A stretch of DNA of 64,000 nt from an uncultured Gammaproteobacteria bacterium (GTDB lineage: Bacteria; Patescibacteriota; Patescibacteriia; Magasanikbacterales; GWA2-37-8): positions 46,962-110,961 of the forward strand of contig CAYZYP010000002.1 in the NCBI GenBank assembly GCA_964482695.1, given 5' to 3'. The notes beneath the pieces are model-generated. The model was given only the letters and a program-made list of their open reading frames with translations, did not search any database and had not been told where the DNA came from. Shown here piece by piece: positions 4,560 through 61,259 of this stretch (position 1 is the first letter of the stretch; each line of letters opens with the position of its first letter). A program made the position numbers and the translations under genes.

Positions 4560-4585
4560 ATATTATCCCGGTTTTTTAAAAAAAT

Positions 4586-4936: not shown

Positions 4937-4946
4937 TTAAAGATTT

Positions 4947-5309
4947 ATGATTAGTAATAAAAAAATAAAAGGAAAATACACTTTGGATGCTGTCGGAGAA
5001 AGCGTGGGCAGGTTAGCTACCAAAATAGCTATGATTTTAATGGGGAAAAACAGCCCTCATTTTACGCCTAATTTAGATAATAAAAACAAAGTTATTATCA
5101 CTAACGTAGATAAAATAAAATTTTCCGGCAAGAAATTAGATAAAAAAGTTTACAAACATCATAGTATGCACCCGGGTGGTTTAAAAATTGTCCCTGCCAA
5201 AAAGGTAATGCAAAGTGATCCTAAAAAGGTTGTTTTAAAAGCAGTTTCTAAAATGTTGCCTAAAAATAAGTTACGCACCGCGCGTTTATTAAGAATTTCT
5301 TTTAAATAA
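4947..5309 (+). CDS. rplM: 50S ribosomal protein L13
   Basis: Contains GRLATKIAMILMGKNSPHFTPNLD..VIITNVDKI. Confidence 0.9.
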   Translation: MISNKKIKGKYTLDAVGESVGRLATKIAMILMGKNSPHFTPNLDNKNKVIITNVDKIKFSGKKLDKKVYKHHSMHPGGLKIVPAKKVMQSDPKKVVLKAVSKMLPKNKLRTARLLRISFK

Positions 5310-5314
5310 AACTT

Positions 5315-5722
5315 ATGACTAATACAGTGATTCAGTCAGAAAAAAAACAGGTAGTCGGCCGACGTAAAACAGCAGCCGCTAGAATTAGAATTAAACCAGG
5401 AACAGGGGAAATAATCGTTAATAATAAAGATTGGAAAAAGTATTTTCCTTCTTCAGAATATCAAACTATTATTTTATCGCCTTTACAAAGCGTTGGAAAA
5501 CTAAAGTCTTTTGATTTTAGCGTCAAAGTAGCAGGTGGTGGCATGAAAGGGCAGGCAGAAGCCCTGCAATTAGGAATTTCCAGAGCCTTGGCTAGTTATG
5601 ACGAAGAACTTAAAAAGACTTTAAAATCTTTGGGGTATTTAACACGCGATCCAAGAGCCAAAGAAAGAAAAAAGCCAGGGCTTAAACGCGCCAGACGCGC
5701 ACCGCAATGGTCCAAACGTTAA
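5315..5722 (+). CDS. rpsI: 30S ribosomal protein S9
   Basis: Contains GRRKTAAARIRIKPGTGEIIVN... and the C-terminal KKPGLKRARRAPQWSKR. Confidence 0.95.
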   Translation: MTNTVIQSEKKQVVGRRKTAAARIRIKPGTGEIIVNNKDWKKYFPSSEYQTIILSPLQSVGKLKSFDFSVKVAGGGMKGQAEALQLGISRALASYDEELKKTLKSLGYLTRDPRAKERKKPGLKRARRAPQWSKR

Positions 5723-18258: not shown

Positions 18259-18289
18259 TTGACACCACCACCATAGGTGGAGGTATAAT
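18259..18289 (+). promoter_or_regulatory. csoR promoter with a candidate operator (CCACC-ATA-GGTGG) between the -35 and -10
   Basis: TTGACA at 18259-18264, TATAAT at 18284-18289, and an inverted repeat at 18268-18280 inside the spacer. Confidence 0.5.
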
Positions 18290-18343: not shown

Positions 18344-18619
18344 ATGTTGGAACCATATACAGCCAAAGTCAAATTAAATCTAAAGAAAGTGCAGGGGCAA
18401 ATTAATCTGGTAAATAAGATGATCGAAGAAAAAAGATATTGTGTTGATGTGGCTCAACAGGTAAACGCGGCCATTGGTATTTTAAAACAAACTAATAATA
18501 TTATTTTGGAAAGCCATTTAAATACTTGCGCTACCAGTAAATTAAACTCAAAAAAAGCCGGTGAACGTGAAGAATTTGTCAAAGAATTGATACAGACTTT
18601 TAATGTGGCGGGGAAATAA
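18344..18619 (+). CDS. csoR: CsoR/RcnR-family metal-sensing transcriptional repressor
   Basis: 91 aa with the C...H...C ligand pattern (YCVDV....HLNTC). Confidence 0.8.
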   Translation: MLEPYTAKVKLNLKKVQGQINLVNKMIEEKRYCVDVAQQVNAAIGILKQTNNIILESHLNTCATSKLNSKKAGEREEFVKELIQTFNVAGK

Positions 18620-18650
18620 TATAAAAATAATTTATCATTATACATATACA

Positions 18651-18790
18651 TTCTCAGCATTAAATTATTTTTAGACACATCAATTTTGCCCAGCGGCAAA
18701 ATTAACTTAAGTGCTCGGCAAAAATCCCGACTAACGTCGGGACCATGCATTTTTGCCTCGCAAACTCTAAAAATAATTTAATGCTGAGAA
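18651..18790. repeat. Nested-palindrome structured repeat, copy 1 (about 96-nt conserved core inside a locus-specific 22-bp inverted repeat)
   Basis: Outer arms TTCTCAGCATTAAATTATTTTT / AAAAATAATTTAATGCTGAGAA. The core TAGACACATCAATTTTGCCCAGCGGCAAAATTAACTTAAGTGCTCGGCAAAAATCCCGACTAACGTCGGGACCATGCATTTTTGCCTCGCAAACTCT contains two sub-hairpins. Confidence 0.8.
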
Positions 18791-18808
18791 TGTAATTAAA
18801 CAAAAAAT

Positions 18809-20254
18809 ATGCAAAAACGAACAATTTTTATCAACGGCATGCACTGCGCGTCCTGCGAACTTTTAATAGAAAATAATCTTAAAAAAATAAATGGAGTTAA
18901 AGAAGTTAAAATTAGCCACAAAACAGGACAGGCAGAGATAAGTTTTACAGGAGATGTTTTAGCAGACAGTGATGTTTTACAAGCGGTAAAAGACGCTGGT
19001 TACGATATTGGCTCGGTTAATAAATTATCATTCTTTTCTAAAGACATAAAAGATTATAAAAATTTATTAATAGCGGCTTTAATTATATTAATCGGCTATT
19101 TAACCGCTAAATGGTTTGGTTTGTTTGAACTTAATGTAAACACTTCATCTGATGGCTTGTTTATTTCTTTATTAGTTGGTTTGGTGGCCGGCATTTCTAC
19201 CTGCATGGCTTTGGTTGGCGGGCTGGTGTTGGCTTTGTCAGCCAGGCACGCCGAAATCCACCCCGAAGCAACGTCGATGCAAAAATTTCGACCGCATTTA
19301 TTTTTTAATCTTGGTCGGATTGTCGGTTTTGGTTTGTTGGGCGGTTTAATCGGCTTAATTGGTTCAACTGTAAAATTTTCTACCAACACGTTGGCCATGA
19401 TGACAATAATAATTGGGTTAGTGATGATTTTTTTAGGTTTAAAGTTAGTAGAAATATTTCCTTTTTTAAAAAATAAAACAATTTCATTGCCAAAAAGCAT
19501 TTCTAAATTTTTTGGTTTTAAAAGCGAGCAGAAAGAATACAGTCATAAGGGGGCGTTTGTTACTGGTGTACTGACATTTTTTTTACCCTGTGGCTTTACG
19601 CAAGCGATGCAATTATACGCTGTAAGCACTGGTAGTTTTGGGCGTGGAGCGCTAATTATGTTTTTATTCGCCTTAGGCACCGCGCCCGGACTATTGGGCA
19701 TTGGGGGAGTTAGTTCTTTATTTAAAGGTCAACGTAAAAGATTATTTTTTGCTACTGCCGGCGTGTTGGTAATTTTATTTGGGATTTATAACATCACTAA
19801 TGCCAGCAAGCTTATTGCTATAAACAATGTCCCTAAAACTAATAATACAAACAATATTATTTCAAATGGAAAAACACAAGAAGTTAAAATGACCCAAAAA
19901 GCCAATGGCTACGCGCCAAATGTATTTACCGTGAAAAAGGGCGTGCCGATAAAATGGATTATTACTTCGGAAACAACATTTTCTTGCGCCAGCTATATTG
20001 CCATGCCAAAATATGGTATTAGCCAATCGCTTAAAAAAGGCGAGAATATTATCACCTTTACCCCAACAGAAATCGGTGAAATTCCATTTTCTTGTTCAAT
20101 GGGCATGTATACCGGGAAATTTATCGTGGTGGATAATGATTCTGCTGTTTCCGCGCCAACTACTGACAAAAGTTTGTCTTCTGGCGGCGGCTGTAGAATG
20201 ACGAGTAGCGGCGGGGGTTGTGGTGGCTGTGGTGGGATAGTAAAGAATAATTAA
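18809..20254 (+). CDS. HMA-domain membrane protein (putative Cu chaperone/permease) with a C-terminal cupredoxin-like domain and a Gly/Cys-rich tail
   Basis: N-terminal MHCASCE heavy-metal-associated motif, about 8 TM helices, a beta-rich C-terminal domain, and a tail [20 protein letters not shown]. Confidence 0.6.
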
Positions 20255-20265
20255 AATTTAATAAT

Positions 20266-22611
20266 ATGTCTGCTAAATTATACTTACAAATTCAAGGCAT
20301 GCATTGCGCGTCGTGCGCTCGCTTGGTGGAAAATGGTTTAAAAAAGATAGCTGGTGTTAACGAAGTAAATGTTAATTTTTCCACCGAAAAAGCAAAGGTC
20401 ATTTTTGATGAAAATAAAACTAATATCACAAAATTAATAGAAGCTGTAAAAAAAGCTGGCTATAAAGCTGCTGTTAATGAACCAGGAGATCAAGACGCGG
20501 AACAACAAAGAAAACAGCAAGAAATTAAAATAATAAAAAATAATTTTCTTTTAAGCGCTTTTTTTAGTTTGCCAATGTTGTATTTCATGCTGTTGGATTT
20601 TTTTATTTTTTTACCCGGCAATGAATTTATAATGCCATTTATGGGTATTATTTCTTTAATTCTTGCCACCCCCATACAATTTATCATTGGCGCTGGTTTT
20701 TATCGGGGTCTGTGGAGCGGTTTAAAGATGAAAACTTTTAACATGGATAGTTTAATCGCCATTGGCACCAGCACGGCGTTTATTTATAGTTTAATTCAAT
20801 TTATAATTTACGTCATAAATAACGGGAGTGTGTTCGGTTTGAACGGAGAAAAAATTCCCGACTTATATTTTGAAACAGCGGCGTTTTTAATTACTTTCGT
20901 GATTTTGGGCAAATGGCTAGAAGCAAAAGCCAAAGGGCGTACTTCGGAAGCGATTAAAAAATTAATGGGTTTACAGCCAAAAACCGCGCGCGTTATAAAA
21001 AATAACGCGACAATGGACGTGCCAATTGAACAGGTTCAAGTCGGCGATACTATTGTTGTCAGGCCGGGCGAAAAAATTCCGGTTGACGGCGAAATTACCA
21101 AAGGTAACTCGTCTGTTGACGAATCAATGTTGACCGGCGAAAGTATTCCGGTGGAAAAAAATATTGGCGATAAAGTAGTTGGCGCGACGATAAATAAGCA
21201 CGGCAGTTTTGAATTTAAAGCCACCAAAGTCGGCAGTGAAACCGCTTTGGCGCAAATTGTTCGTTTGATAGAAGAAGCCCAAGGGTCAAAAGCGCCCATC
21301 CAAGCTTTTGCTGATAAAATTTCCGCCTATTTTGTGCCAACAGTCATTGGCTTGGCAATTCTTACTTTTATAATTTGGTTTTTTATACTAAGCGCTGGTT
21401 TTGCCTTTAGTATTATGGCGTTTACGGCCGTGATAGTTATTGCTTGCCCCTGCGCCCTGGGATTGGCCACACCAACCGCTATAATGGTAGGTACTGGTAA
21501 AGGAGCAGAATACGGGGTGTTGATTAAAGGCGGTGAACCATTAGAGGCAGCTTGTAAAATAAAAGCGATTGTTTTTGATAAAACAGGCACTTTGACCAAA
21601 GGAGAGCCGGAAGTGACTGATATTGTTGGCTTAGCGGAAAGTGACGAAGAAGAAATTATTAGTATTGCCGCAAGTTTAGAAAAATTATCAGAGCATCCTT
21701 TAGCCGAAGCAATTGTCAAATACGCGACAGAAGAATCAATTGTTTTAGAAGAGGCAGATAACTTTAAAGCTATTCCCGGTCATGGCGTGGAAGCGATTAT
21801 CAATGGCCAAAAATATTATTTTGGTAATAGAAAATTGATGACCGATATTGTGAATTTAGATGTCAGTAAGACAGAGAGAAAAATTCGTAAACTGGAAGAA
21901 GGTGGAAAAACTACCATGATACTATCTTCTGATAAAGAAATTCTCGGGTTAATCGCGGTGGCCGATACTTTGAAAGAAAGTACAGTGGAAGCGGTTCAGC
22001 AATTGCAAAAACGTGGGTTAGAAGTTTATATGATAACCGGTGATAATCGCCGCACAGCCGAAGCTATTGCTAAACAAGTTGGTATAAAAAATGTTTTAGC
22101 CGAAGTTTTGCCAGAAGATAAGGCGAATGAGATAAAAAAAATACAAGGCATGGGCGTGAGAGTAGCGATGGTGGGGGATGGAATTAACGACGCGCCAGCA
22201 TTGGCGCAAGCTGATTTGGGTATTGCTATGGGCGGGGGCACTGATGTGGCGATGGAAACCGGCGGCATTGTCATTATTAAAAATGATTTGCGCGATGTCC
22301 TCACCGCTATTAAACTAAGCCGCGAGACAATGGGGAAAATTAAACAAAATATGTTTTTTGCTTTGTTCTATAATGTTATTGGCATCCCCATTGCCGCGCG
22401 CGTTTTTGTTGGTTTGGGCTTAATTTTAAAGCCAGAACTAGCCGGACTAGCTATGGCCATGAGCTCTATTTCTGTTGTCAGTAATTCTTTGTTACTGCGC
22501 CGTTTTCACCCGCGTAAAAAAAATTATTTTTCAATTATCGCGCCAATTATTATGGGTGTGATTTTTTTGATATTGTTTGTTGTATTCGCCAAGTGGAGCG
22601 CGAAAGTATAA
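20266..22611 (+). CDS. copA: Copper-translocating P1B-type ATPase
   Basis: MHCASCA (HMA), CPC, DKTGTLT and GDGINDAP motifs. Confidence 0.95.
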
Positions 22612-23002
22612 TTATATTAAAAAATTTTACAGATAATATTTTTTTGTGGATAACTTCCATTGACCAAGAATAACTTTTCATCTAAACTATCTTTAGTTCT
22701 TTCAAATATATCAAGAGCGGTGCGAGGGAATCGGCCCGACAACCACCCAGCAACCCCCAAAGCGGGGGTGCTAATTCCGAACCCTAAATACAGGGAAAGA
22801 TAAGTTTTGTCTTGTCTACCCGCCTCTGGCGGAGACAAGGCAAAAAACGCTTTTTTAAAAAGGCCTTTTACTCTTTCTTTGTGATATATTTAGGGTAAAG
22901 GGCTTTTTTGTTTTATTATGTAAAAATTGTATTTCCATTCATAGACGGTTTAAGAATTAAAACAATTTAATTTTTAAACCGTCTATGACGGAAGGAGAAG
23001 AA

Positions 23003-23155
23003 ATGAAAAAAAAGGATAAAAAAAAATCCCCGCCCACACCCCCGCCTCTTTCACGAGAAAAATTAGAGGAGTTGGCCAATGCTGGCCAACTCCGTCCTTC
23101 TTTTTTCTGCGATTCGCGCATGGCCAAAGTAGCGGCCAACAACGCGGGTCGTTAG
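23003..23155 (+). CDS. Small hypothetical protein (50 aa), Pro/Lys-rich N-terminus
   Basis: Strong Shine-Dalgarno AAGGAG 5 nt upstream of the ATG, which is unusual here, and a 14-bp hairpin immediately before it. An antisense ORF (22957..23142) overlaps. Confidence 0.3.
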   Translation: MKKKDKKKSPPTPPPLSREKLEELANAGQLRPSFFCDSRMAKVAANNAGR

Positions 23156-32073: not shown

Positions 32074-32343
32074 ATGTTGGAAAACATGTCTCCCAAAACG
32101 ACTGACAGACAATACTATTTATTTGCTTTGCGAATAATTGGTGATTTTGGGGCTAGCATCGCTGTACCGATAGTTATTTTTGTTTTAGCAGGGCAATACT
32201 TAGATGAAAAATATCAAAAATCTCCGTTTTTCACCATTTCAGCTTTTATGATATCAGCCTTAATTTCCGCGAAAATAATACATAAAAAAGCTAAACGTTA
32301 CGGAGCGGAATACCAAAAAATGGTTGATAATGAAAAGAAATAA
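32074..32343 (+). CDS. AtpZ/AtpI-like small membrane protein preceding the atp operon
   Basis: 89 aa with 2 TM helices, positioned immediately upstream of atpB. Confidence 0.5.
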   Translation: MLENMSPKTTDRQYYLFALRIIGDFGASIAVPIVIFVLAGQYLDEKYQKSPFFTISAFMISALISAKIIHKKAKRYGAEYQKMVDNEKK

Positions 32344-32346
32344 ACT

Positions 32347-33117
32347 ATGCACATTCCTACACTGGCGCCAGAAATTTTGTTTGAACTAGGGGGATTTCCA
32401 ATAACCAACACCATGGTCAATGTTTGGTTGGCAATTGTCATTTTTTTAATCTTTGGTTTAATAATCAGAAAAAAAGCGGCCGTGCGGCCAGGAAAATTAC
32501 AAAATGCCTCAGAATTTTTTCTAGATGGACTCATGGGCTATTTTGATCAAGTTACCGGAGACCATAAAAAAACTTTGCGTTTTTTACCACTTGTTGGTTC
32601 GGTCTTCTTTTTTATTTTACTTTCTAACTGGCTAGGCTTACTTCCTGGCACAGGCAGTATAACTTTTGGCGGCAAGATGTTACTACGACCAGCCAATACC
32701 GATTTAAATTTAACAGCTGCCATGGCTATTGTTTCGGTTTTAGCTTCACATTTATTTGGGCTATTTACTGTTGGAATTTTTACGCATCTAAATAAATTTA
32801 TACAAATAGGTACTTTTGTCAAAAGTTTTCGCAAAGGCCCGGTGGCAATACTCACGGCTGTTATTGAATTAGCGGTTGGCGCGATTGAAATAGTAAGTGA
32901 GATGGCCAAAGTAGTTTCTCTTTCACTAAGGTTATTTGGTAATATTTTTGCCGGCGAAGTTTTAATTACAGTTATCAGTAGCTTGGTAGGTTTAATAGTA
33001 CCAACGCCATTTATGTTATTAGAATTATTGGTTGGAATTATCCAAGCAAGTGTTTTTGCTATATTAACATTGGTATATTTGACAATCCTAACAACCAAAC
33101 CACAGACGGAACACTAA
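32347..33117 (+). CDS. atpB: F0F1 ATP synthase subunit a
   Basis: LSLRLFGNIFAGE contains the essential Arg. Confidence 0.95.
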   Translation: MHIPTLAPEILFELGGFPITNTMVNVWLAIVIFLIFGLIIRKKAAVRPGKLQNASEFFLDGLMGYFDQVTGDHKKTLRFLPLVGSVFFFILLSNWLGLLPGTGSITFGGKMLLRPANTDLNLTAAMAIVSVLASHLFGLFTVGIFTHLNKFIQIGTFVKSFRKGPVAILTAVIELAVGAIEIVSEMAKVVSLSLRLFGNIFAGEVLITVISSLVGLIVPTPFMLLELLVGIIQASVFAILTLVYLTILTTKPQTEH

Positions 33118-33122
33118 TCAAA

Positions 33123-33285
33123 CTTTTACGGTGCACCAACGAACAATATATCTTTTTTAGAAAAAAAGTAGTCGGAAAACTTTTTGCCGTAGTGAAACGT
33201 AGGCAAAAAGGCAAACGGATAACTGCTTTTTTTCTAAAAAAGATATATTGTTCGTTGGTGCGATGAATTACGTTTACGCATATTC
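33123..33285. repeat. Long-hairpin repeat family, copy c (35-bp perfect stem plus conserved tail) between atpB and atpE
   Basis: Stem CACCAACGAACAATATATCTTTTTTAGAAAAAAAG / rc, then tail CGATGAATTACGTTTACGCATATTC; the left flank CTTTTACGGTG resembles copy a. Confidence 0.7.
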
Positions 33286-33385
33286 TTTACAAAAAAATTT
33301 TATAATTTAATTAAGGACATGATACTGGCGAAGTAAAACATACCCCCTCTTCGTCTCCAGTAACATATCCAAGAAAGGTAATAAT

Positions 33386-33607
33386 ATGGAACACGAATCA
33401 ATCGTGACAATCGTCAAAGGTTTAACCATGGCCTTGGGAGGCTTTTTCCCGGCAATGGCTATCGGCAGATTAGTGGCCAAAGCTATGGAAAGTATCGGCC
33501 GCAACCCAGAATCAGCTGGAAAATTATTCGTCCCAATGTTACTTGGCGCCGCTTTTGCCGAAGCTATCGCTATTTACGCTCTAGTAGTTGTGTTTACTTT
33601 AAAATAG
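33386..33607 (+). CDS. atpE: F0F1 ATP synthase subunit c
   Basis: Two-TM hairpin with the conserved carboxylate region AFAEAIAIYALVV. Confidence 0.95.
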   Translation: MEHESIVTIVKGLTMALGGFFPAMAIGRLVAKAMESIGRNPESAGKLFVPMLLGAAFAEAIAIYALVVVFTLK

Positions 33608-33668
33608 TTTGATCCATACTAGGTCATCTTTGTTGGCCTAGTATAACTAAATTAGTTTAAATAAATTT

Positions 33669-34235
33669 ATGCTTATAGATATCGTTCACGCCTCCGAGAC
33701 TGTGGCGACCCATGCCGTAGAAGGTGCTGTAAAAAATGAGAATGTTTTAGCGTCTTTAGGTATAAATAGTACAATGTTTATTTTTCAATTAATAAACTTT
33801 GCTATTGTCGCATTGATATTATGGTTCTTGGTTTTAAAACCACTAACTAAAAAGATGGCCGAAAGACAGTCTTTGATAGAAGATGGTTTAAAAAATGCCG
33901 AAGAAGTAAAGAAAAATTTGCATAAAAGCGAACAAAAATATCAAGAAAAAGTAGACGAAGCCAAAGCAGAAGCTGGCAAAATAATCGCTAAATCACAAGT
34001 AGATGCTTTAGATGCCACTAACAAAACAAAAGAAAAGGCCAAGCAAGAAATAGAATTGCTGGTTGACCAAGCAAAACGAAATATTAAAATTGAAAAGCAA
34101 GAAATGATTAGCGAAGTTAAAAAAGAAGCCGCTAATTTAGTAACTATTGCTTTAGAAAAAATATTAAATGAAAAAATTGATGAAAAAAAAGATAAACAAT
34201 TAATAGAAGATAGTTTAAAAAAAATTAAAATATAA
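33669..34235 (+). CDS. atpF: F0F1 ATP synthase subunit b
   Basis: One N-terminal TM helix plus a long charged coiled coil. Confidence 0.85.
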   Translation: MLIDIVHASETVATHAVEGAVKNENVLASLGINSTMFIFQLINFAIVALILWFLVLKPLTKKMAERQSLIEDGLKNAEEVKKNLHKSEQKYQEKVDEAKAEAGKIIAKSQVDALDATNKTKEKAKQEIELLVDQAKRNIKIEKQEMISEVKKEAANLVTIALEKILNEKIDEKKDKQLIEDSLKKIKI

Positions 34236-34266
34236 AAATGTGAAAGGTGGTTAGAAACGCAAAATT

Positions 34267-34674
34267 TTGCGTCTGTACAAAATTATGAAAAAAAATAGCA
34301 ACAAACAACTAGCAATTTCATTCTTTAAAGCCACCAAAGAAATTAAGGGCGATGATTTAGAAAAAATAATTAAAAATTTTATTATTTTATTATCTAAAGA
34401 ACATAAATTAAAACAAATCAATAATATAATCACCGAGTTTATAAAATATGCCAAAAAACAAGAGGGGATAATAGATGTTGAGGTTATTACCGCGCGCGAT
34501 ATGAGTGATCCTATGATTAACAAAATACAAACAGCGTTAGGGCAAAAAATCGAAGCAGTAAAAAAGACAGATGGCAGTTTACTTGGTGGATTAGTAATAA
34601 AAACAGAAAATGTAATTTTAGACGCTAGTTTAAAAACACAGCTAAAAAAAGTAAAAGAAGCCATGGAAAGTTAA
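34267..34674 (+). CDS. atpH: F0F1 ATP synthase subunit delta (OSCP), short
   Basis: C-terminal LGGLVIKTENVILDASLKTQL consensus; assigned from its position between atpF and atpA. Confidence 0.8.
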   Translation: MRLYKIMKKNSNKQLAISFFKATKEIKGDDLEKIIKNFIILLSKEHKLKQINNIITEFIKYAKKQEGIIDVEVITARDMSDPMINKIQTALGQKIEAVKKTDGSLLGGLVIKTENVILDASLKTQLKKVKEAMES

Positions 34675-34749
34675 AAATATTAAATATTATATACTGTTTA
34701 TTATACGCTTTGATATGATATCCATTATATAATATCTAATACTTAAAAT

Positions 34750-36243
34750 ATGTCTGTAAATTCAATCGTCGAACAATTAAAAAAGAATATTGCCGCGTTT
34801 GAAAAAAACGTGCAAGTAGAAGAAGTGGGTAAAGTAGTAGAAGTAGGAGATGGTATTGCCAGAATGAGCGGCCTAACAAAATGTCAGGCCAGCGAAATGT
34901 TAGAATTTCCCAACAATGTTTATGGGGTAGCTTTGAATTTAGAAGAAGAAACAGTTGGCGCTGTTTTACTAGGTGAATACGAACATATCAAAGAAGGCGA
35001 TATTGTAAAACGCACCGGAAGAGTATTGTCTGTGCCAGTAGGCGAAGAATTGATAGGTAGGGTTGTTAATCCATTAGGTCAAGCTATTGATGGTGGCAAA
35101 GAAATAAAATCAACTAAGTTTTATCCTGTAGAAAAAATAGCTCCTGGAGTAATGAAGCGCCAACCAGTAACCCAACCTGTGCAAACAGGTATTAAAGCGA
35201 TTGACGCCATGATCCCAATTGGTCGCGGTCAACGCGAACTAATAATTGGCGATCGCCAAACAGGCAAAACAGCGGTAGCTATAGATACTATTATCAATCA
35301 AAAAGGCAAAGACATGATTTGTGTTTATGTCGCTATTGGCCAAAAAGAATCAAAAATAGCTCGCATCGTAGCCAAACTAAAAGAAGCGGGCGCTATGGAT
35401 TACACCATAGTTGTTGTAGCCGGAGCTTCGCAACCAGCTTCTCTATCTTATATGGCTCCTTACGCTGGAGTAGCTATGGCGGAATATTTCATGGATAAGG
35501 GCAAAGACGCTCTAATTATTTATGATGATTTATCTAAACAAGCTTGGGCTTATAGAGAAATTTCGTTACTACTTCGCCGCCCACCTGGCCGCGAAGCATA
35601 TCCTGGTGATGTTTTTTATTTGCACTCTAGATTATTAGAACGAGCTTGTCGCAGGAACAAAGAATCGGGTGGTGGCTCTATTACAGCGTTACCTATTATA
35701 GAAACTCAGGCTAGCGATGTAACTGCTTATATCCCTACCAATGTAATTTCTATTACCGATGGCCAAATTTTTTTAGAAACAGATCTGTTTTACCGTGGCA
35801 TTCGCCCGGCTTTAAACGTTGGTATCTCTGTTTCTCGTGTTGGTGGCGCGGCGCAAATAAAACCAATGAAAAAAGTAGCTGGTAAATTAAAATTAAACAT
35901 GGCTCAATTTCGCGAACTAGAAGCTTTCGCTCAGTTTGCTAGTGATTTGGATCCAGAAACAAAAAAACAAATTAATTTAGGCCAACGTTTGGTAGAAATT
36001 TTAAAACAACCACAATATCAGCCAATGTCCGTAGCTAATCAAGTAGCGATTATTTTTGCAGTTTCTAATGGTTTTGCCGACGATATAGCTGTTAAAGATA
36101 TTAGCGATTGGGAAATAAAATTTCATGAATTTATCAATAAAAAACCGGCGCTTTTAGAAAAGATAGAGAGTGGAGATTGGGATGAAAAAATAGAAAATGA
36201 ATTAAAAAATGTTTGTGATGAATTTATCAAATCTACTAAATAG
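34750..36243 (+). CDS. atpA: F0F1 ATP synthase subunit alpha
   Basis: Walker A GDRQTGKT and the alpha signature regions. Confidence 0.97.
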
Positions 36244-36262
36244 AACGTGCTAATATTTAATT

Positions 36263-37234
36263 ATGGCAATTAATACCAAGGCAATTAAACGACGCACAAA
36301 ATCAGTTTCCAGCACTAAAAAAATCACCAAGGCGATGGAAATGGTGGCTGCGGCAAAAATGAGAAAGGCTGTTTCTGCTGCTTTGGATACTCGCGCCTAC
36401 GCTACGGTGGCTTGGAATTTGTTAGTAAATTTATCAAAAACACAAAAAGCTATCTTACCTCTTTTAGATGTCCGATCGGTTAAACGTTTATTGGTAATTT
36501 TAGTAACTTCCAACAGGGGATTATGCGGTAGTTTTAATAGTAATATAATTAAAAAAACAGCTGAACAAATGCAAAACCCTATAAATATTAGCAAACAAAG
36601 AATAGCTAATAAAAATGTTGAACCTGCTGAAAAAATAGAAATAGATGTTATTGGTATTGGTAAAAAAGGCGCTGACTTTGCCAAAAAAATGAAGTATAAT
36701 TTAGTCGCCTCATTTAGTGAATTTACCGACACTCCTAGTCTTAAAGACATTTTGCCGATAAGTAAAATAATAATCAACGATTACGAAACAAAAAAATACG
36801 ATAAAATTGTTATTGCTTATACTGATTTTAAATCCACTATCAATCAAGTAGCAAAATTAAGACAAGTTTTACCAATATCAGAACAAGATTTAGAAAAAAT
36901 GATCAAAGAAATCGGCAAAGACGAAGCAGACGCCGTTTCTGTCGCCGAAGAAAAAAATAAAAGCCAATTAGAATTAAATAATTATCTTTTTGAACCAAAT
37001 AAAATTGATGTCTTAAAAATTATTTTACCACGCTTGGTTGAAACACAGATTTTTCAAGCTGTTTTAGAGTCTTCGGCCAGTGAACACAGCGCGCGTATGA
37101 TAGCCATGAGAAATGCTAGCGATGCTGCCGAAGATATGGTTAAAGAATTAAATTTAAATTTTAATAAAGCTCGCCAAGCTGGTATAACACAAGAAATTGC
37201 CGAAATAGCTGGCGGGGCGGCCGCTTTAGGATAG
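36263..37234 (+). CDS. atpG: F0F1 ATP synthase subunit gamma
   Basis: Conserved N- and C-terminal helices (ITQEIAEI). Confidence 0.92.
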   Translation: MAINTKAIKRRTKSVSSTKKITKAMEMVAAAKMRKAVSAALDTRAYATVAWNLLVNLSKTQKAILPLLDVRSVKRLLVILVTSNRGLCGSFNSNIIKKTAEQMQNPINISKQRIANKNVEPAEKIEIDVIGIGKKGADFAKKMKYNLVASFSEFTDTPSLKDILPISKIIINDYETKKYDKIVIAYTDFKSTINQVAKLRQVLPISEQDLEKMIKEIGKDEADAVSVAEEKNKSQLELNNYLFEPNKIDVLKIILPRLVETQIFQAVLESSASEHSARMIAMRNASDAAEDMVKELNLNFNKARQAGITQEIAEIAGGAAALG

Positions 37235-37306
37235 ATAATAAAGATTAAAAATTAATCTCGATAATTAATATTTAATCTTTTATATTTAATATCTAAATAT
37301 TTTTAA

Positions 37307-38680
<1,374 letters not shown>

Positions 38681-38689
38681 ATTTACTCT

Positions 38690-39103
38690 ATGAAGCTAAA
38701 AATAGTTACTCCGGAAAAAACAACTTACGAAAACGAAATTTTTCAAGTTTCCATACCTACCACAACAGGTGAAATTACGATCCTCCCACACCATATTTCT
38801 TTGGTAACTGTTTTGATAGCTGGAGAATTGAAGATAAAAGATAGTAGCGGCGAACAGTTTATCGCCGTGGCCGGTGGTTTTGTAGAAATACGTTCTAACG
38901 ACGAAATAATTATTTTAGCCGATAACGCTGAACGCGCAGAAGACATAGATATTCAACGTGCCGAAGAAGCTAGAAAAAGAGCCGAGGAACAAATGAAACA
39001 AACTAAAATTTCCGAAGATATCGACTTTGCTAAATTACAGGCTATAATAGACAGAGAAGTAAACAGGGTAAGGATAGCCAAAAAATATCGTAAACTCCCA
39101 TAA
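38690..39103 (+). CDS. atpC: F0F1 ATP synthase subunit epsilon
   Basis: Size, position, and a beta-sandwich N-terminus plus helical C-terminus. Confidence 0.88.
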   Translation: MKLKIVTPEKTTYENEIFQVSIPTTTGEITILPHHISLVTVLIAGELKIKDSSGEQFIAVAGGFVEIRSNDEIIILADNAERAEDIDIQRAEEARKRAEEQMKQTKISEDIDFAKLQAIIDREVNRVRIAKKYRKLP

Positions 39104-39145
39104 TTTTTAATGGGGTTTAATATCGTTTATTTTTAATTTTAATAT

Positions 39146-39277
39146 ATGGCCAATTGCTCTAATTGTGAAATGCCAATGGAAAACGAGAGCGAACAATGCT
39201 CTTGTAATAACGAACTTTGCTTTCATTGTTGCGAATGTGATACAGATTGTGAATGTGCTTGCTCTGAAAAAGAATAA
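39146..39277 (+). CDS. Cysteine-rich acidic 43-aa peptide (11 Cys), possible metal-binding or RiPP-like
   Basis: MANCSNCEMPMENESEQCSCNNELCFHCCECDTDCECACSEKE; it lies 40 nt after atpC and is followed by a strong terminator. Hand-called. Confidence 0.45.
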   Translation: MANCSNCEMPMENESEQCSCNNELCFHCCECDTDCECACSEKE

Positions 39278-39299
39278 TTAAAACAGCAGAAAAGTATAT

Positions 39300-39327
39300 A
39301 ACCCCGACCAGTTCGGGGTTATTTTTT
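39300..39327 (+). terminator. Rho-independent terminator closing the atp operon and small ORF
   Basis: AACCCCGA-ccag-TTCGGGGTT followed by ATTTTTT. Confidence 0.8.
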
Positions 39328-39336
39328 GTTTGTTAA

Positions 39337-39484
39337 TAGACATTCATATTTATCTATTACTAGACACATAGATTTTGCCCAGCGGCAAAATCTATTCAAG
39401 TGCTCGACAAAAATTTTTTCCTTCGGGAAAAAACCATGCATTTTTGCCTCGCAAGCTCTAATAATAGATGAATATGAATGTCTA
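39337..39484. repeat. Nested-palindrome structured repeat, copy 2
   Basis: Outer arms TAGACATTCATATTTATCTATTA / TAATAGATGAATATGAATGTCTA around the core TAGACACATAGATTTTGCCCAGCGGCAAAATCTATTCAAGTGCTCGACAAAAATTTTTTCCTTCGGGAAAAAACCATGCATTTTTGCCTCGCAAGCTCT. Confidence 0.8.
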
Positions 39485-39555: not shown

Positions 39556-41319
39556 TTGTTTAATTTTGTTATGAAATATAATACAAAACTGACATTTAAG
39601 ATATTTTGGCAACACGCTTTAAAGTATAAATTAGCGATGATTGTCATTTTTTTATCTGTTACCACTGGCGCGGCTTTTGGCGTCAGCACCCCGTATTTTT
39701 ATAAGAAATTTTTTGATGCCTTAACAAATAATGGCACTAAGGGCGACTTGCTGCATGTTTTGTTTTTCATCTTTTTAACCATGACTGGCGAATGGTTTTT
39801 TTGGCGTATTGCCGCTTTTGTCAACGCTTATTTTCAAACAAAAATGATGGGTGATTTGGCTGTTACCTGCTTTAAATACCTTCACAAACACTCTTTTGGC
39901 TTTTTTAATAATAACTTTGTTGGCTCTTTGGTAAAAAGAGTTAACCGTTTTTATCGCGCTTTTGAAGGTATTGCCGATCGCTTTACTTGGGATTTATTGC
40001 CAATCCTCACTAACATTATACTTATTATCATCATTCTCGCTAAAAGAAGTGTCTACCTTGGTTTGGCCATAATTGTCTGGATAATAATTTATTGCGTAAT
40101 TAATTATCTATTTACTATTTATAAATTAAAGTATGATGTTGAAAGAAGTAAGTGGGATAGCAAAGTAACCGGTGTTTTAGCCGACACCATCACCAATAAT
40201 TCAAACATCAAACTTTTTGTTGGTTATAACAGAGAGGTTAAAAACTTTGCTGGCGTCACAGAAAAATTAAACCGTTTAAGAAAATTTACCTGGGATCTGT
40301 CTAATATTTTTGAAGGTTTCCAGGTTATGTTTATGATTGCCTTGGAAATTGGTATTTTTTATATTGCCATAAATTTATGGTTTAAAAAAGCATTAACCAT
40401 CGGCGATTTTGTTCTTATTCAATCATATATTTTAACAATTTTCATGAAATTGTGGGATTTTGGTCGTGTTGTTAGAAATTTTTATGAAAATTTAGCTGAT
40501 GCCGAAGAAATGACCGAGGTTTTAAACACCCCGCATGGAATAACAGATGTTAAAAATGCCAAAAAATTACTTGTTAAAGAGGGTGGCATAAAATTTAATA
40601 AAGTAAATTTTTTTTACCATCAAACCAGGCCGGTGTTTGAAAATTTTAATTTAAATATTATCCCTCGTGAAAAAATCGCTTTAGTTGGCCCGTCTGGAGC
40701 TGGCAAAACCACTATAGTTAAATTGCTGTTGCGCATGCACGATGTAAGTCAAGGGGAAATAGTTGTTGATGGACAAAATATTGCCAAAGTTACTCAAGAA
40801 AGTTTGTGGCAAAATATTTCTATGGTGCCGCAAGATCCAATTCTTTTCCATCGTTCACTATTGGAAAATATTCGCTATGGCAAACCAGACGCAAATGACA
40901 AAGAAGTATTTAAAGCCGCGAAATTAGCTCACTGTCATGAATTTATTTCTGAATTTCCTGATGGTTATGAGACAAAAGTAGGGGAGCGCGGTATTAAATT
41001 ATCTGGTGGCGAACGTCAACGTGTGGCTATAGCGCGCGCTATTTTACGTAACGCGCCAATTTTGGTGTTAGACGAAGCCACCTCTAGTCTGGACTCGGAA
41101 TCCGAATCGCTTATCCAAGATGCTTTGGATGTATTAATGAAAAATAAAACTGTCATTGTTATAGCTCATCGTTTGTCTACTATTATGAAAGTAGATAGGA
41201 TACTTGTCGTGGCTGCTGGTGGAATTCTAGAACAAGGCACTCACACCGAACTACTAGCCAAAAAAGATGGCCTATACCAAAAATTGTGGAAAATTCAGGC
41301 TGGAGGATTTATTAGATAA
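39556..41319 (+). CDS. ABC transporter permease/ATPase fusion (type I exporter, MsbA/lipid-A-exporter-like)
   Basis: 6 TM helices followed by an NBD with GPSGAGKTT, LSGGERQR and LVLDEATS. Confidence 0.9.
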   Translation: MFNFVMKYNTKLTFKIFWQHALKYKLAMIVIFLSVTTGAAFGVSTPYFYKKFFDALTNNGTKGDLLHVLFFIFLTMTGEWFFWRIAAFVNAYFQTKMMGDLAVTCFKYLHKHSFGFFNNNFVGSLVKRVNRFYRAFEGIADRFTWDLLPILTNIILIIIILAKRSVYLGLAIIVWIIIYCVINYLFTIYKLKYDVERSKWDSKVTGVLADTITNNSNIKLFVGYNREVKNFAGVTEKLNRLRKFTWDLSNIFEGFQVMFMIALEIGIFYIAINLWFKKALTIGDFVLIQSYILTIFMKLWDFGRVVRNFYENLADAEEMTEVLNTPHGITDVKNAKKLLVKEGGIKFNKVNFFYHQTRPVFENFNLNIIPREKIALVGPSGAGKTTIVKLLLRMHDVSQGEIVVDGQNIAKVTQESLWQNISMVPQDPILFHRSLLENIRYGKPDANDKEVFKAAKLAHCHEFISEFPDGYETKVGERGIKLSGGERQRVAIARAILRNAPILVLDEATSSLDSESESLIQDALDVLMKNKTVIVIAHRLSTIMKVDRILVVAAGGILEQGTHTELLAKKDGLYQKLWKIQAGGFIR

Positions 41320-42120: not shown

Positions 42121-45063
42121 ATGCGTGAATTAAATTCACATCAAAAACAAGCTGTTGAATATACCAAAGGCCCGTTAATTATTGTCGCTGGCGCGGGAAC
42201 TGGCAAAACTACCGTTATTACCAACAAAGTCGCTTATCTAATAGAAAAAAAACTGGCCCTGCCAGAAGAAATTTTGGTATTGGCGTTTAATGATAAAGCG
42301 GCCGAAGAAATAGTCGCGCGAGTAGATGAAAAACTTGATTTAGGTTACGTAGAATTACAAATTTCTACTTTTCACGCTTTTTGCCAAAAAATTTTAGAAC
42401 AATACGGACTAGAAATTGGTTTAAGCAACCAATTCAAAATATTAACTCAAACAGACGCTTGGATTTTAATACGACAAAATTTAGATAAGTTTAATCTTGA
42501 TTATTATCGCCCACTGGGCAATCCAACTCGCCATATTCACGAATTAATAAAACACTTTTCCAAATGCAAAGACGAACTTATTACCCCGCAAGAATACTTA
42601 GACTACGCCGAAAATTTAGAATTAGATAAAGATGACAACAATACAGAAGACAAAAGCAGGATTACAGAAATAGCTAACGCTTTTCATACTTACAATCAAT
42701 TATTATTAGATAACAACGCTTTGGATTTTGGAGATTTAATTCAATATGCCGTAATTCTTCTAGAAAAAAGAAAAAATGTGTCTAAACAATTACAAAATAG
42801 ATTTAAATATATTTTGGTTGATGAATTTCAAGATGTTAACTGGGCGCAGTATCAATTAGTAAGGTTTTTGGTTAATAATCAGTCACAATTAACGGTTGTG
42901 GGCGATGATGATCAATCAATTTATGCCTTTCGCGGGGCATCGGTCTCAAATATCATGCGCTTTAAAGATGATTTTCTCAAAGCCAAAGAAATAGTATTAA
43001 CAGAAAACTATCGTTCGGGGCAAAAAATCTTAGACACAGCTTATCAGTCAATACAAAATAATAACCCCGATAGGCTAGAAGCAAAACTGAAAATAGATAA
43101 AAAACTTAAATCCGCGTTAAAAATCAATAGCGAAGTTATTTATATCCACAAAACGACTCTGGACGATGAAACACGAGCGGTTGTAGAAGAAATAGGCAGA
43201 TTAAAAATAATAAACAAAGAAACAACTTGGGATGATTTTGCTATTCTAGTTAGAGCTAATAGCCATGCGCAACCTTTTATCAATATTTTAGAAGCCAAGG
43301 GTATTTCATACGAATTTTTAGCTTCTAGCGGATTATACCGCCAGCCGATTGTTTTAGATTGTTTAAATTTTTTCAAATTATTAAATAGTTATCACGAATC
43401 CACTGCTATTTATAGGCTACTTCGTTTACCATTTTTAAACTTTAAAGAAAATGATTTGCAAAAAATAACTTACAACGCTAAACGAAAAAGTATTTCCTAT
43501 TACGAGACAATAAAACGAGCGACAGAATTTAATTTGTCTCCAGATGGTCTAAAAATTTGTGATAAACTAATCGGTTTAATCCACGATGGGCTAAAAAACG
43601 CCCGTTTCAATAAGCCACACCGAGTATTGTACGAATTTTTAGAACAATCAGGATATTTAAAATATCTAGCTCATGAAGAAAACAAAAATAACAGAGAAGT
43701 TACTAGACAAATATACCAATTAACTCAGTTTTTTAATTATTTAAAAAAATACGAAGAAACGACTCCGGACGCGCATATTACTGATTTTATGATTCATTAC
43801 AATGATTTGGCTGAATCTGGCGATGAAGGCAATCTCTACCAACCTGTTGATACGCCGGATTCGGTTAATATTATAACCGTGCACAAAGCAAAAGGTTTGG
43901 AATTTAAATATGTTTTTGTTGTTAATTTAGTAGAAGACAGATTTCCAGCTCGCAAAAGGGGAGAGGGGATAGAAATGCCAGCTCCGCTTATTAAAGAACA
44001 ATTGCCAGAAGGTGATAGCCGCTTACAAGAAGAAAGAAGATTGTTCTATGTCGCCTTGACTCGCGCTAAAGAAAAATTATATTTAACCAGCGCCAGTGAT
44101 TATGGCGGAGTTAAAACTAAAAAAATTAGCAGATTTCTAGATGAATTGGGATATAAAATTATTAATTCTTTGCCGGAAAAAACAAACGAAATATTGATTA
44201 ATCAAAAAAACAAAAATTCTAACAATGACAATAATAAAGAAGGACTGGAATATTCCGTTCCAACCAATTTTTCTTTTTCACAAATCAAATCTTATAATAC
44301 CTGCCCTTATCAATACAAGCTGGGAAATATTATCAAGTTGCCCATAAAAGAAACTCATTATTTCAGTTTTGGTAATACGATGCATAATACTTTGCAAGAA
44401 TTTTATAAACGAATACAAATATTAAACAGCGCGCGACAAAACAGTTTGTTTGATTCGGTAGGGACAAGTCGCGAGATGTCTCCGTCTAATAATATTAATA
44501 TACCAGATTTAAAAGAATTATTATCTATTTACGAAGAAAAATGGCTAGATGAATGGTATTTAAACAAACAGCAACGTGAAAAATATTTTGCTGATGGTAA
44601 AAAAATGTTAACAGAATTTTATAATAGCCAAAAAAACAGCTGGACGATTCCTATAGTTTTAGAAGGGGGATTTAAAATAAAGATAAAAAATTATTTAATA
44701 AACGGGCGGATTGATAGAATAGATAAATTAGAAAAAGGCACCCTACACATTATTGATTACAAAACAGGAGCCAGCAAAGAAACCGCAGTTGGTGATGAAA
44801 AAGATCAGTTGCTGTTATATCAATTAGCTGTTTCTAGCTTGCCACAATATACTAATATTGGCTTACCGGAAAAATTAACTCTTTATTATCTAAAAGACAA
44901 TTTACAAACTAATTTTATAGGCAAAGACAAAGAAATAGAAAAATTGCAGAATAAAATAGCAACTACTATTGATAAAATTCAAGCAAAAGATTTTATGCCT
45001 ACTCCAGAAAAATTTACTTGTAAGAATTGCCATTTTAAAGATATTTGCGAATCTAGAATGTAA
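42121..45063 (+). CDS. UvrD/AddA-family ATP-dependent helicase fused to a C-terminal RecB/Cas4-like PD-(D/E)xK nuclease domain with a Cys cluster
   Basis: Walker A GAGTGKTT, the UvrD motif set, C-terminal ...IIDYKTG... and CKNCHFKDIC. Confidence 0.85.
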   Translation: MRELNSHQKQAVEYTKGPLIIVAGAGTGKTTVITNKVAYLIEKKLALPEEILVLAFNDKAAEEIVARVDEKLDLGYVELQISTFHAFCQKILEQYGLEIGLSNQFKILTQTDAWILIRQNLDKFNLDYYRPLGNPTRHIHELIKHFSKCKDELITPQEYLDYAENLELDKDDNNTEDKSRITEIANAFHTYNQLLLDNNALDFGDLIQYAVILLEKRKNVSKQLQNRFKYILVDEFQDVNWAQYQLVRFLVNNQSQLTVVGDDDQSIYAFRGASVSNIMRFKDDFLKAKEIVLTENYRSGQKILDTAYQSIQNNNPDRLEAKLKIDKKLKSALKINSEVIYIHKTTLDDETRAVVEEIGRLKIINKETTWDDFAILVRANSHAQPFINILEAKGISYEFLASSGLYRQPIVLDCLNFFKLLNSYHESTAIYRLLRLPFLNFKENDLQKITYNAKRKSISYYETIKRATEFNLSPDGLKICDKLIGLIHDGLKNARFNKPHRVLYEFLEQSGYLKYLAHEENKNNREVTRQIYQLTQFFNYLKKYEETTPDAHITDFMIHYNDLAESGDEGNLYQPVDTPDSVNIITVHKAKGLEFKYVFVVNLVEDRFPARKRGEGIEMPAPLIKEQLPEGDSRLQEERRLFYVALTRAKEKLYLTSASDYGGVKTKKISRFLDELGYKIINSLPEKTNEILINQKNKNSNNDNNKEGLEYSVPTNFSFSQIKSYNTCPYQYKLGNIIKLPIKETHYFSFGNTMHNTLQEFYKRIQILNSARQNSLFDSVGTSREMSPSNNINIPDLKELLSIYEEKWLDEWYLNKQQREKYFADGKKMLTEFYNSQKNSWTIPIVLEGGFKIKIKNYLINGRIDRIDKLEKGTLHIIDYKTGASKETAVGDEKDQLLLYQLAVSSLPQYTNIGLPEKLTLYYLKDNLQTNFIGKDKEIEKLQNKIATTIDKIQAKDFMPTPEKFTCKNCHFKDICESRM

Positions 45064-45077: not shown

Positions 45078-45368
45078 ATGCAAAATTTAGCCGAGATTTT
45101 CAAAAAACACAAAAACACTTCTCCTTTATGGCGAGGGGTTAATGCCTCTTTGATTGTAGAAGAAGCAAACAAAATATTAATAGAACTATTCGGCAAAGAA
45201 GCGTTAAAATATGCTAACGCTGTTTATTGTAAAAATAATATTTTAACCTTTGCCTGCCTTAGCTCTACTTTTGCTCAAGAAATAAAACTAAATAAAAATT
45301 TAATCATACTCAAAATAAACAAAAAATTTGGTTTAAACACTATTTTAAATATAAAATATTTGGCTTAA
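45078..45368 (+). CDS. DUF721/DciA-like small protein
   Basis: 96 aa with the pattern NILTFACLSSTFAQEIKLNKNLIILKINKKFG, typical of DUF721. Confidence 0.5.
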   Translation: MQNLAEIFKKHKNTSPLWRGVNASLIVEEANKILIELFGKEALKYANAVYCKNNILTFACLSSTFAQEIKLNKNLIILKINKKFGLNTILNIKYLA

Positions 45369-61095: not shown

Positions 61096-61126
61096 AAGTT
61101 TTATAATTTTTATAATTTGTTGATAA

Positions 61127-61259
61127 TATCTTTTTTTGGAGTTTGCGAGGCAAAATTGCACGGCTCCCCGACTCAGTCGGGGAAATTTTGTCGAGCACTT
61201 AAGTCAATTTTGTCGCTGGACAAAATTGACGTGTCTAAAAAAAGATGTTATCAACAAAT
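61127..61259. repeat. Nested-palindrome structured repeat, copy 3 (reverse orientation); the outer right arm overlaps the last codons of gltX
   Basis: Outer arms TTTGTTGATAATATCTTTTTTT / AAAAAAAGATGTTATCAACAAA around the reverse complement of the same ~90-nt core. Confidence 0.8.

Follow-up and report, generated by a model that had tools for sequence, protein, structure and literature searches.

A cysteine-rich mini-protein encoded downstream of atpC belongs to an undescribed family of Patescibacteria

The gene and its family

The DNA considered here is a stretch of 64,000 nucleotides (positions 46,962 to 110,961 of contig CAYZYP010000002.1), termed the window below, with a G+C content of 35%. 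It contains a complete F1Fo ATP synthase operon, in which an atpI-like gene at 32074 is followed by atpB, E, F, H, A, G, D and C (32074-39103). The last true gene of this atpIBEFHAGDC operon, atpC (38690..39103, + strand), encodes the F1 epsilon subunit (Pfam ATP-synt_DE_N and ATP-synt_DE; NCBIfam TIGR01216 above cutoff). The nearest relatives of the AtpC protein, at 48-78% identity, are found in metagenome-assembled genomes of Candidatus Magasanikbacteria, which belong to the Patescibacteria or candidate phyla radiation (CPR). An open reading frame (ORF) for 43 amino acids (39146..39277 with its stop codon, + strand) starts 42 nt after atpC, a gap first given as 40 nt. On the evidence of its homologues this ORF is a genuine, unannotated protein-coding gene, conserved and under purifying selection, and the mini-protein that it encodes belongs to a family, spread over the Patescibacteria, that had not been described before.

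The translation of the ORF, MANCSNCEMPMENESEQCSCNNELCFHCCECDTDCECACSEKE, has 11 cysteines in 43 residues (26%), one histidine and a net charge of -10, in agreement with the acidic peptide of the original prediction. The cysteines form the motifs CxxC, CxC, CxxCC and CxCxxxCxCxC, which are conserved across 80 homologues. Base composition alone predicts 1.2 cysteines per 43 sense codons, and the probability of finding at least 11 is 3e-8. The window has 914 stop-to-stop segments that reach 30 aa or more, and the mini-protein ORF exceeds all the others in cysteine fraction; the long ORFs of the window average 0.95% cysteine.

The ORF has no Shine-Dalgarno (SD) sequence, and its A/T-rich leader resembles those of the atp genes. 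An SD-like 4-mer is present in just 3 of 47 long ORFs of the window, whose starts are preceded by A/T-rich stretches. The missing SD is therefore unremarkable in this genome, and the near-absence of such sequences probably explains why gene callers overlook short genes of this type. The exact peptide is not found in a collection of 15 billion proteins, which does contain AtpC and AtpE from the same 121-kb contig (entries from NCBI, JGI, ENA and Logan), and thus the ORF has been overlooked by every annotation of the genome.

A short ORF without an SD sequence, uncalled by annotation pipelines in a genome of 35% G+C, might be regarded as a chance reading frame in an AT-rich 3′ untranslated region. 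The original prediction named a lack of synteny or sequence conservation in any relative, together with a lack of ribosome footprints, as the outcome that would favour this view. Relatives were examined and about 80 homologues retain the cysteines, so the gene is real. With the improbable cysteine content, a nonsynonymous divergence far below the synonymous one and SD-less starts that are usual in this genome, virtually nothing is left of the chance-ORF explanation, which is ruled out by the conservation of the family.

The homologues are not readily detected. A word-index search with the single window peptide returned no candidates. When 1.84 billion representatives were searched exhaustively with phmmer, 11 proteins emerged (44-60 aa, 45-56% identity, E 7e-6 to 4e-4), and profile searches then reached 24 and subsequently 70 clusters, with a best E of 5e-16. 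The approximately 80 homologues range in length from 41 to 77 aa and are called 'hypothetical protein' wherever the source names them. Their named source organisms are all Patescibacteria: Paceibacterota, Daviesbacteria, Nealsonbacteria, Berkelbacteria, Minisyncoccales and Parcubacteria. No family match was found in PHROGs or by tblastn against phage genomes. In a metagenome scan, a degenerate TGY pattern that covered the last nine cysteines matched mostly (TGC)n/(TGT)n microsatellites and gave no family members in 120 loci. A literature search on metallothioneins together with Patescibacteria or CPR, and on cysteine-rich small proteins of the CPR, found no description of the family.

The family shares the motif C-x(1,2)-C-G-M-P-L-x(5-7)-C-x-C-x4-C-x-[HY]-C-C-x-C-x3-C-x-C-G-C. 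In an alignment of 80 family sequences (A4), cysteines 18, 20, 29, 31, 35, 37 and 39 are invariant, and C7, C25 and C28 are each present in 79 members. The first cysteine is the most variable: C4 is present in 60 sequences, the first pair is CxxC in 57 and CxC in 22, and members that lack C4 usually have the CxC form. Other residues are also conserved, namely G8 (61 of 80), M9 (73), P10 (76), L11 (64) and G38 (69), and position 27 is histidine in 48 sequences and tyrosine in 21. Hydrophobic or aromatic residues occupy positions 24 and 26, namely a conserved L24 and Y, F, I or V at 26. The spacers, by contrast with the fixed cysteines, are variable and often acidic or basic, such that the net charge spans -20 to +8. 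Many members have a lysine-rich C-terminal tail; the tail is not conserved, and the window protein has no basic tail.

At the nucleotide level, TGT and TGC interchange freely at the conserved cysteine codons (11 coding sequences). The proportion of synonymous differences (pS) is 0.6-1.0, which is saturated, versus 0.12-0.40 for nonsynonymous differences (pN; 15 coding sequences); these proportions are given instead of the rate ratio dN/dS because of the saturation of synonymous sites. As pN is well below a saturated pS, the mini-protein is under purifying selection. Since the cysteines are fixed while spacers and charge vary, selection appears to act on the thiolates and on a very small core (M9, P10, L11, L24 and Y/F26), and not on a binding surface.

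Position next to the ATP synthase operon

The original prediction regarded the ORF as probably the last cistron of the atp transcript, followed by the strongest intrinsic terminator in the window. The gene does end at an intrinsic terminator (39298..39328, + strand), which has a 10-bp G+C-rich stem (ATAACCCCGA/TCGGGGTTAT), a 5-nt loop and the run TTTTTT, with approximately -13 kcal/mol. In a crude hairpin-energy scan, however, the hairpin at 39298-39322 ranks only about eighth in the window, and one at 23065-23097 on the - strand reaches -22 kcal/mol. In what follows, related loci are denoted by L numbers. The homologous gene also ends at comparable terminators in L081, L087, L090 and L096.

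On the upstream side, a weak hairpin overlaps the atpC stop codon (39096..39115, + strand); it has a 6-bp stem, -9.9 kcal/mol in extended form and an interrupted T-rich tail, and may let some transcription pass into the mini-protein gene. At the corresponding position, relatives have a strong terminator of the atp operon. Two candidate sigma-70-like promoters, TCGACT-16-TATAAT (39021-39048, + strand) and TAGCCA-18-CATAAT (39075-39104, + strand), lie inside the 3′ end of atpC. Both are consensus matches only, and the number of such matches in the region is not above shuffle expectation; from either of them the mini-protein gene might be transcribed separately. No extended -10 box was found in the 42-nt spacer.

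Relatives show a clearer arrangement. In L002, L007 and L093 a strong hairpin, G+C-rich and with a T-run, is located after atpC, and behind it comes an extended -10 promoter of the TGnTATAAT type (TGGTATAGT, TGGTATAAT and TGTGTATAAT, respectively). Inspection of folds shows a strong G+C-rich hairpin and T-run after atpC in L018 and L024 as well, and in L090 a TTGACA-17-TATAGT promoter overlaps the atpC end. Family genes situated away from atp (L083, L086, L089, L091) also carry a TGnTATAAT box. Because of the terminators after atpC and the separate promoters, the gene in these relatives is, as read from its signals, an independent transcription unit. For the window, read-through from the atp operon is plausible. 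The view of the gene as the last atp cistron thus finds no support in L002, L007 and L093, or in the family loci that are not linked to atp.

Strict family members (hidden Markov model (HMM) E<1e-9) are found directly 3′ of atpC in the window, L002, L007, L090 and L093, i.e. at 5 of 15 family loci. When the count is limited to loci reached by protein search, without atpC as bait, it is 2 of 12; the other 10 have unrelated neighbours and are not near atp. The synteny with atpC for which the original prediction called is therefore present in relatives only in part, and atp linkage is confined to Magasanikbacteria-like genomes. Such an ORF is missing from six close relatives that share the atp operon (L001, L003, L004, L005, L009, L010). 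The genes further downstream are also shared: the ABC (ATP-binding cassette) exporter and PcrA-like helicase genes of the window recur in L092 and L093 (with DciA in L092), and the helicase gene in L090.

In some sister genomes the slot after atpC holds different cysteine-rich peptides, at L018 3506-3646, L011/L012 3484-3624 and L024 3518-3640 (all + strand), each behind its own terminator and promoter. The L018 peptide has CxCxxxCxC repeats and has the C-terminal module in common with the family (hhalign 74%). The L011/L012 and L024 peptides are not matched by the family HMM; those of L011 and L024 resemble the family in the first ~15 residues alone and non-significantly, and hhalign gives 19% over 13 N-terminal residues for L011. 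A separate observation concerns L008, where an identical cysteine-rich ORF of 45 codons, MFCPYCDAVLLEDEICPKCGGCADCCVCYENEDDEEKDDLDEQ, occurs at 5183-5320 (+) and 5355-5492 (-), the two copies being perfect inverted duplicates with 35 nt between them. This ORF has a weak match to Zn_ribbon_3 (E 0.001); the palindrome could be a true duplication or have arisen in assembly.

These observations raise the question of whether the mini-protein of Magasanikbacteria serves F1Fo as an accessory or regulatory subunit. It might, for instance, be an inhibitor that responds to redox state or metal, is expressed with the operon as its final cistron and plays a part like that of AtpTheta, IF1 or the C-terminal domain of epsilon. 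AtpTheta of cyanobacteria and IF1 of mitochondria are small ATP synthase regulators that are not known to be cysteine-rich. The mini-protein resembles them as a peptide of ~45 aa encoded beside atp genes in one clade, and differs in its cysteines and in a clade-specific atp linkage that is interrupted by terminators and promoters. The position directly after atpC in five loci, the other cysteine-rich peptides that fill the slot in L011/L012, L018 and L024, and the weak hairpin that alone separates atpC from the gene in the window speak for a subunit. Yet consistent co-occurrence or co-transcription with atp is not seen: atpC is set apart by strong terminators and separate promoters in L002, L007, L093, L018 and L024, the gene is unlinked to atp at most loci found by protein search, and the six relatives that have the operon without the ORF add to this. 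As the exporter, helicase and DciA genes are syntenic too, inherited gene order suffices as an explanation. A subunit is thus very unlikely. A related and equally doubtful idea is that the slot is kept for fast-diverging cysteine-rich peptides, with the peptide acting as a redox- or metal-sensing modulator of F1Fo by way of read-through; if true, ultra-small bacteria would have a small regulator of ATP synthase of a type not seen before.

The link to ATP synthase is probably mere synteny. The gene would be a stand-alone unit, and Magasanikbacteria would have inherited the slot between atpC and the gene of the MsbA-like ABC exporter. The simplest account is that a small gene, fast-evolving and dispensable, has been passed on vertically within a fixed gene order.

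The adjacent exporter bears on another possibility, that the peptide is a precursor of a ribosomally synthesized and post-translationally modified peptide (RiPP), ranthipeptide/SCIFF-like or otherwise cysteine-crosslinked, and is exported by this transporter. SCIFF/ranthipeptide precursors have six cysteines in forty-five residues, and the mini-protein is like them in size and cysteine richness. It is unlike them in that it has no leader/core division, no precursor HMM match (NCBIfam, E<=1) and no neighbouring gene for a radical S-adenosylmethionine (rSAM)/SPASM enzyme. No rSAM, YcaO or LanM-type maturase gene is present within ±10 kb, in line with the original remark on adjacent genes, or in 14 related loci, and the sole radical-SAM gene among the neighbourhoods (L090) encodes RlmN. 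Conservation is uniform over residues 4-39, with no GG cleavage motif. The exporter gene (39556/39572-41319) adjoins atpC also in the relatives L004, L014 and L026, which have no such peptide, and its product has no C39 peptidase domain and is below cutoff for all NCBIfam families, with MsbA as the best likeness. A role of the transporter as a dedicated peptide exporter was rejected on the basis of the absent C39 domain and its presence in those relatives. The RiPP reading is largely ruled out by the missing maturase, HMM match and leader/core structure, and is given even less credence than a subunit of ATP synthase. The original comparison of the cysteine spacing therefore holds for the likeness to metallothioneins over known zinc ribbons, and does not hold for the likeness to RiPP precursors, as no maturase is encoded in any of the 15 loci.

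A possible metallothionein-like protein

The mini-protein falls within the size and cysteine content that define metallothioneins (MTs): with 43 aa and 26% cysteine it compares with the definition of ~15-30% cysteine in CxC, CxxC and CC arrangements. A cytoplasmic, folded, metallothionein-like mini-protein that would bind several metals by its thiolates and act in metal buffering or detoxification is considered an even prospect on the present evidence. Metal binding, the choice of metal, the stoichiometry and the physiological role are all inferred.

The proposed mechanism is as follows. The 11 cysteine thiolates, possibly with Met9 and His/Tyr27, would wrap several soft metal ions, either Cu(I) or Zn(II)/Cd(II). 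Cysteines C4 and C7 together with C18 and C20 would form an N-terminal zinc-knuckle-like site, and the seven-cysteine module CxxCCxCxxxCxCxC, with or without His27 and Met9, a C-terminal cluster. The load might be ~3-4 Zn(II)/Cd(II) or a larger number of Cu(I) ions. Such a protein could serve as a buffer or sink for metal, and perhaps for oxidants, and would be analogous, not homologous, to SmtA or MymT.

AlphaFold2 gives compact, confident models, with predicted local distance difference test (pLDDT) values of 82 and 87, the latter being cited for the window sequence. Foldseek neighbours of these models are multi-zinc modules alone (GATA, RING/IBR, FYVE, CXXC, PHD, LIM) and are non-significant. 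Searches of Pfam, NCBIfam, PHROG and PDB sequences with the peptide and the family profile gave nothing significant (none at E<=10 for PDB sequences). No zinc ribbon or zinc finger family gave an HMM match or significant structural similarity to the mini-protein. The best Pfam trace is Metallothio_5 (E 0.14-0.39; E 0.14 in 2 of 14 members).

Comparison with known systems shows both likenesses and differences. SmtA and BmtA of cyanobacteria and Pseudomonas (PF02069) hold a Zn4Cys9His2 or Zn3Cys9His cluster in a zinc-finger-like fold. The family is like these in that its members are small, folded and, judging by sequence, cytoplasmic, with ~9-11 cysteines and an often conserved histidine; by analogy, a mini-protein with a thiolate cluster of 3-4 metals is plausible. 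Like Pseudomonas MTs, the family is mostly without a dedicated metal-responsive regulator adjacent to the gene (PMC7387436). It differs in having no PF02069 match at E<=10, another cysteine pattern, a shorter core of ~40 aa and an occurrence in Patescibacteria only. The conserved L11, L24, Y/F/I/V26 and H/Y27 depart from the composition of classical MTs, which are poor in aromatic and hydrophobic residues; SmtA-type bacterial MTs, which are folded, zinc-finger-like and use histidine, depart likewise (PMC7387436).

The cluster of the mammalian MT alpha-domain is M(II)4Cys11, with 11 cysteine ligands. The mini-protein is like this domain in having 11 cysteines within ~35 residues as CxC, CC and CxxC, and unlike eukaryotic MTs in its conserved hydrophobic and aromatic residues and confident predicted fold; there is no homology to them (hhalign 2.9% for the human MT2A control). 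MymT, a mycobacterial Cu(I)-binding protein of ~50 aa, is likewise cysteine-rich with CxC- and CxxC-type motifs. MymT is tied to a CsoR-family repressor, as mymT belongs to the RicR regulon (PMC3944814). The mini-protein differs from MymT in that no CsoR box is near the window gene.

The main alternative to a metallothionein-like protein is a structural multi-zinc-finger mini-protein, in which two or three Zn(II) ions would fold a domain that binds a protein, RNA or DNA partner and has a regulatory rather than a buffering role. This is possible, with a distinctly lower probability. The confident compact models, weak Foldseek neighbours that are all cross-braced zinc fingers, and the C-x-x-C-G knuckle with conserved M9, P10, L11, L24 and Y/F26, which suggest a defined fold, are consistent with it. 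So are the lysine-rich tail of many members and promoters that appear constitutive. On the other hand, 11 cysteines within 36 residues exceed known structural zinc modules and lie within the metallothionein range, and no partner gene co-occurs across the family loci. The wide span of charge, the unconserved tail and the strongly acidic window protein argue against a conserved nucleic-acid-binding surface, and the slot peptides of sister genomes (L011, L018, L024) keep the cysteines and not the fold-defining residues.

An iron-sulfur or redox function, be it that of an electron carrier of the ferredoxin type or of a thiol scavenger of oxidants, is improbable, more so than a zinc finger. The abundant cysteines and the proximity of genes for rubrerythrin (L086) and thioredoxin/thioredoxin reductase (L086, L096) would fit such a role; however, the ferredoxin motif CxxCxxCxxxCP is absent, no Fer4 or other iron-sulfur Pfam or NCBIfam model matches even at E<=10, and CC, CxC and CxCxC spacings are atypical for iron-sulfur ligation.

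A connection with copper was proposed originally on the basis of a csoR/copA module ~20 kb upstream. This module was located at 18344-22611 and consists of csoR (18344-18619), a DsbD_2/HMA/cupredoxin fusion gene (18809-20254) and copA (20266-22611). A candidate CsoR operator, CCACCATAGGTGG (18268-18280), is a perfect palindrome (CCACC-ATA-GGTGG) between the -35 (TTGACA) and -10 (TATAAT) elements of the csoR promoter. CsoR control of the window mini-protein gene was considered and rejected, there being no operator-like palindrome nearby. The product of 18809-20254 is itself unusual, in that a DsbD_2 membrane domain is flanked by a heavy-metal-associated (HMA) domain on the N-terminal side and a cupredoxin-like domain on the C-terminal side.

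Another csoR operon is that of L081, of Paceibacterota. Here a family gene (6001) is 0.7 kb from a divergently oriented csoR/RicR-like gene (5006-5278, - strand; Pfam Trns_repr_metal, NCBIfam RicR E 5e-10), and a CsoR-box-like palindrome, CATACCTATggTATAGGTATG, is in the promoter region of the csoR operon. The operon continues with an ORF of 201 aa (4396-5001, - strand), whose product looks membrane-bound. Its last ORF (4193-4327, - strand), which is unannotated and 1.7 kb from the family gene, encodes the 40-aa peptide MTKEKQTCECNCKCKCEPDCKCGCQDKCECEPGCKCGCNQ with two copies of a CxCxxxCxCGC module. Alignment of the family profile with MTKEKQTCECNCKCKCEPDCKCGCQDKCECEPGCKCGCNQ by hhalign gives 91% probability (E 1e-6) over the module CxCxxDCxCGC. 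This similarity is not just compositional, since SmtA, MymT and MT2A reach 3%, 0.4% and 2.9%, respectively. The peptide MTKEKQTCECNCKCKCEPDCKCGCQDKCECEPGCKCGCNQ is likely a copper-regulated metallothionein. An uncalled ORF of ~100 codons also lies in L081; it starts near 5658 and ends ~20 nt before the family gene (coordinates approximate), and apparently encodes a membrane protein.

Other loci have suggestive metal- and redox-gene neighbours. L086 has an adjacent rubrerythrin gene with ZIP and thioredoxin genes, L087 a P-type cation ATPase gene, and L096 thioredoxin/thioredoxin reductase genes; the thioredoxin-system genes of L086 and L096 lie within 3-5 kb. Thus, the proposed relevance of copper receives indirect support from the L081 csoR operon and its module-sharing peptide, while the csoR/copA module of the window itself has no direct link to the gene. 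Among the loci examined the family gene sits inside no csoR operon.

It should be pointed out that several observations weigh against a metallothionein-like protein. The family has no significant match to any metallothionein family, the Metallothio_5 trace at E 0.14 being the best in Pfam, and the hhalign values of its profile for SmtA and MymT (3% and 0.4%) are low. The predicted fold, the hydrophobic and aromatic positions and the G-M-P-L segment would fit a structural zinc finger with a partner about as well. The palindrome CCACCATAGGTGG is unique to the csoR promoter in the window, and none is near the mini-protein gene. The csoR link in L081 concerns one locus and a 15-column alignment of a cysteine-rich module. 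Most family loci have housekeeping neighbours, which are uninformative, and the family promoters appear constitutive, with no operator in common.

Neighbouring features and meaning of the family

Within ±10 kb of the mini-protein gene the window encodes MetRS, CvpA, TatD, the atp operon, the ABC exporter, a Nudix hydrolase and two tRNAs, as well as a PcrA-like helicase-nuclease, DciA, MreBCD and PBP2. The exporter ORF (39556-41319) is listed from a TTG at 39556, and relatives (MKYNTKLTLKIYW... in L014) suggest the ATG at 39572 as the start. The gene at 42121-45063 (+) encodes an AddA-like protein of 980 aa, with a PcrA/UvrD-type helicase and a C-terminal Cas4/PD-(D/E)XK-like nuclease domain. 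It is followed by dciA at 45078-45368 (+); the pair is found after the ABC exporter gene also in L092, and thus this gene order is conserved.

An intergenic repeat of ~145 nt is present three times in the window, at 18648-18793 (+), 39337-39484 (+, copy B) and 61116-61258 (-). Copy B starts 9 nt after the T-run of the mini-protein terminator, and explains why the mini-protein and ABC exporter genes lie ~150 nt further apart here than in L093. Each copy is oriented like its flanking genes, and nhmmer gives E ~1e-30 per copy. A core of ~100 nt is conserved, TAGACAC..TTTTGCCCAGCGGCAAAAT..AAGTGCTCGRCAAAA-(hairpin)-CCATGCATTTTTGCCTCGCAAACTCTAA, and folds as a three-way junction. The outer stem of 19-25 bp is nearly perfect and differs in sequence from copy to copy, and the distal hairpin of P3 varies between copies with pairing retained. 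RNAalifold on the three copies shows compensatory changes in 17 of 50 pairs, and copy B has a minimum free energy of -57.9 kcal/mol (z = -9.8).

The repeat matches no Rfam family even at E<=10, and no copy was found in ~100 related loci or in viral contigs. A variable outer stem with a conserved core is the reverse of a miniature inverted-repeat transposable element (MITE) with conserved terminal repeats. The genes downstream of the three copies, i.e. the copper operon, the ABC exporter gene and an M23 peptidase gene, are unrelated, and a dedicated riboswitch role is therefore unlikely. The repeat may act as a structured RNA or, alternatively, as a cruciform at the DNA level. A different RNA element, an S-adenosylmethionine (S-box) riboswitch that exceeds the gathering score with 55.6 bits, occurs directly after copA (22705-22806, + strand); the next long ORFs of this strand lie several hundred nt downstream of it.

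Few types of bacterial metallothionein are known, and by 2020 the biological role had been investigated for two of these, SmtA (zinc) and MymT (copper) (PMC7387436). If the mini-protein is metallothionein-like, the family would be a new, sequence-unrelated component of metal handling in the Patescibacteria, organisms whose physiology is mostly inferred from genomes, and its scaffold of ~40 residues might represent a new metal-cluster fold. If it is a structural zinc finger instead, it would still be an unrecognised and widespread mini-protein family of the CPR. The family also illustrates how conserved small genes escape annotation.

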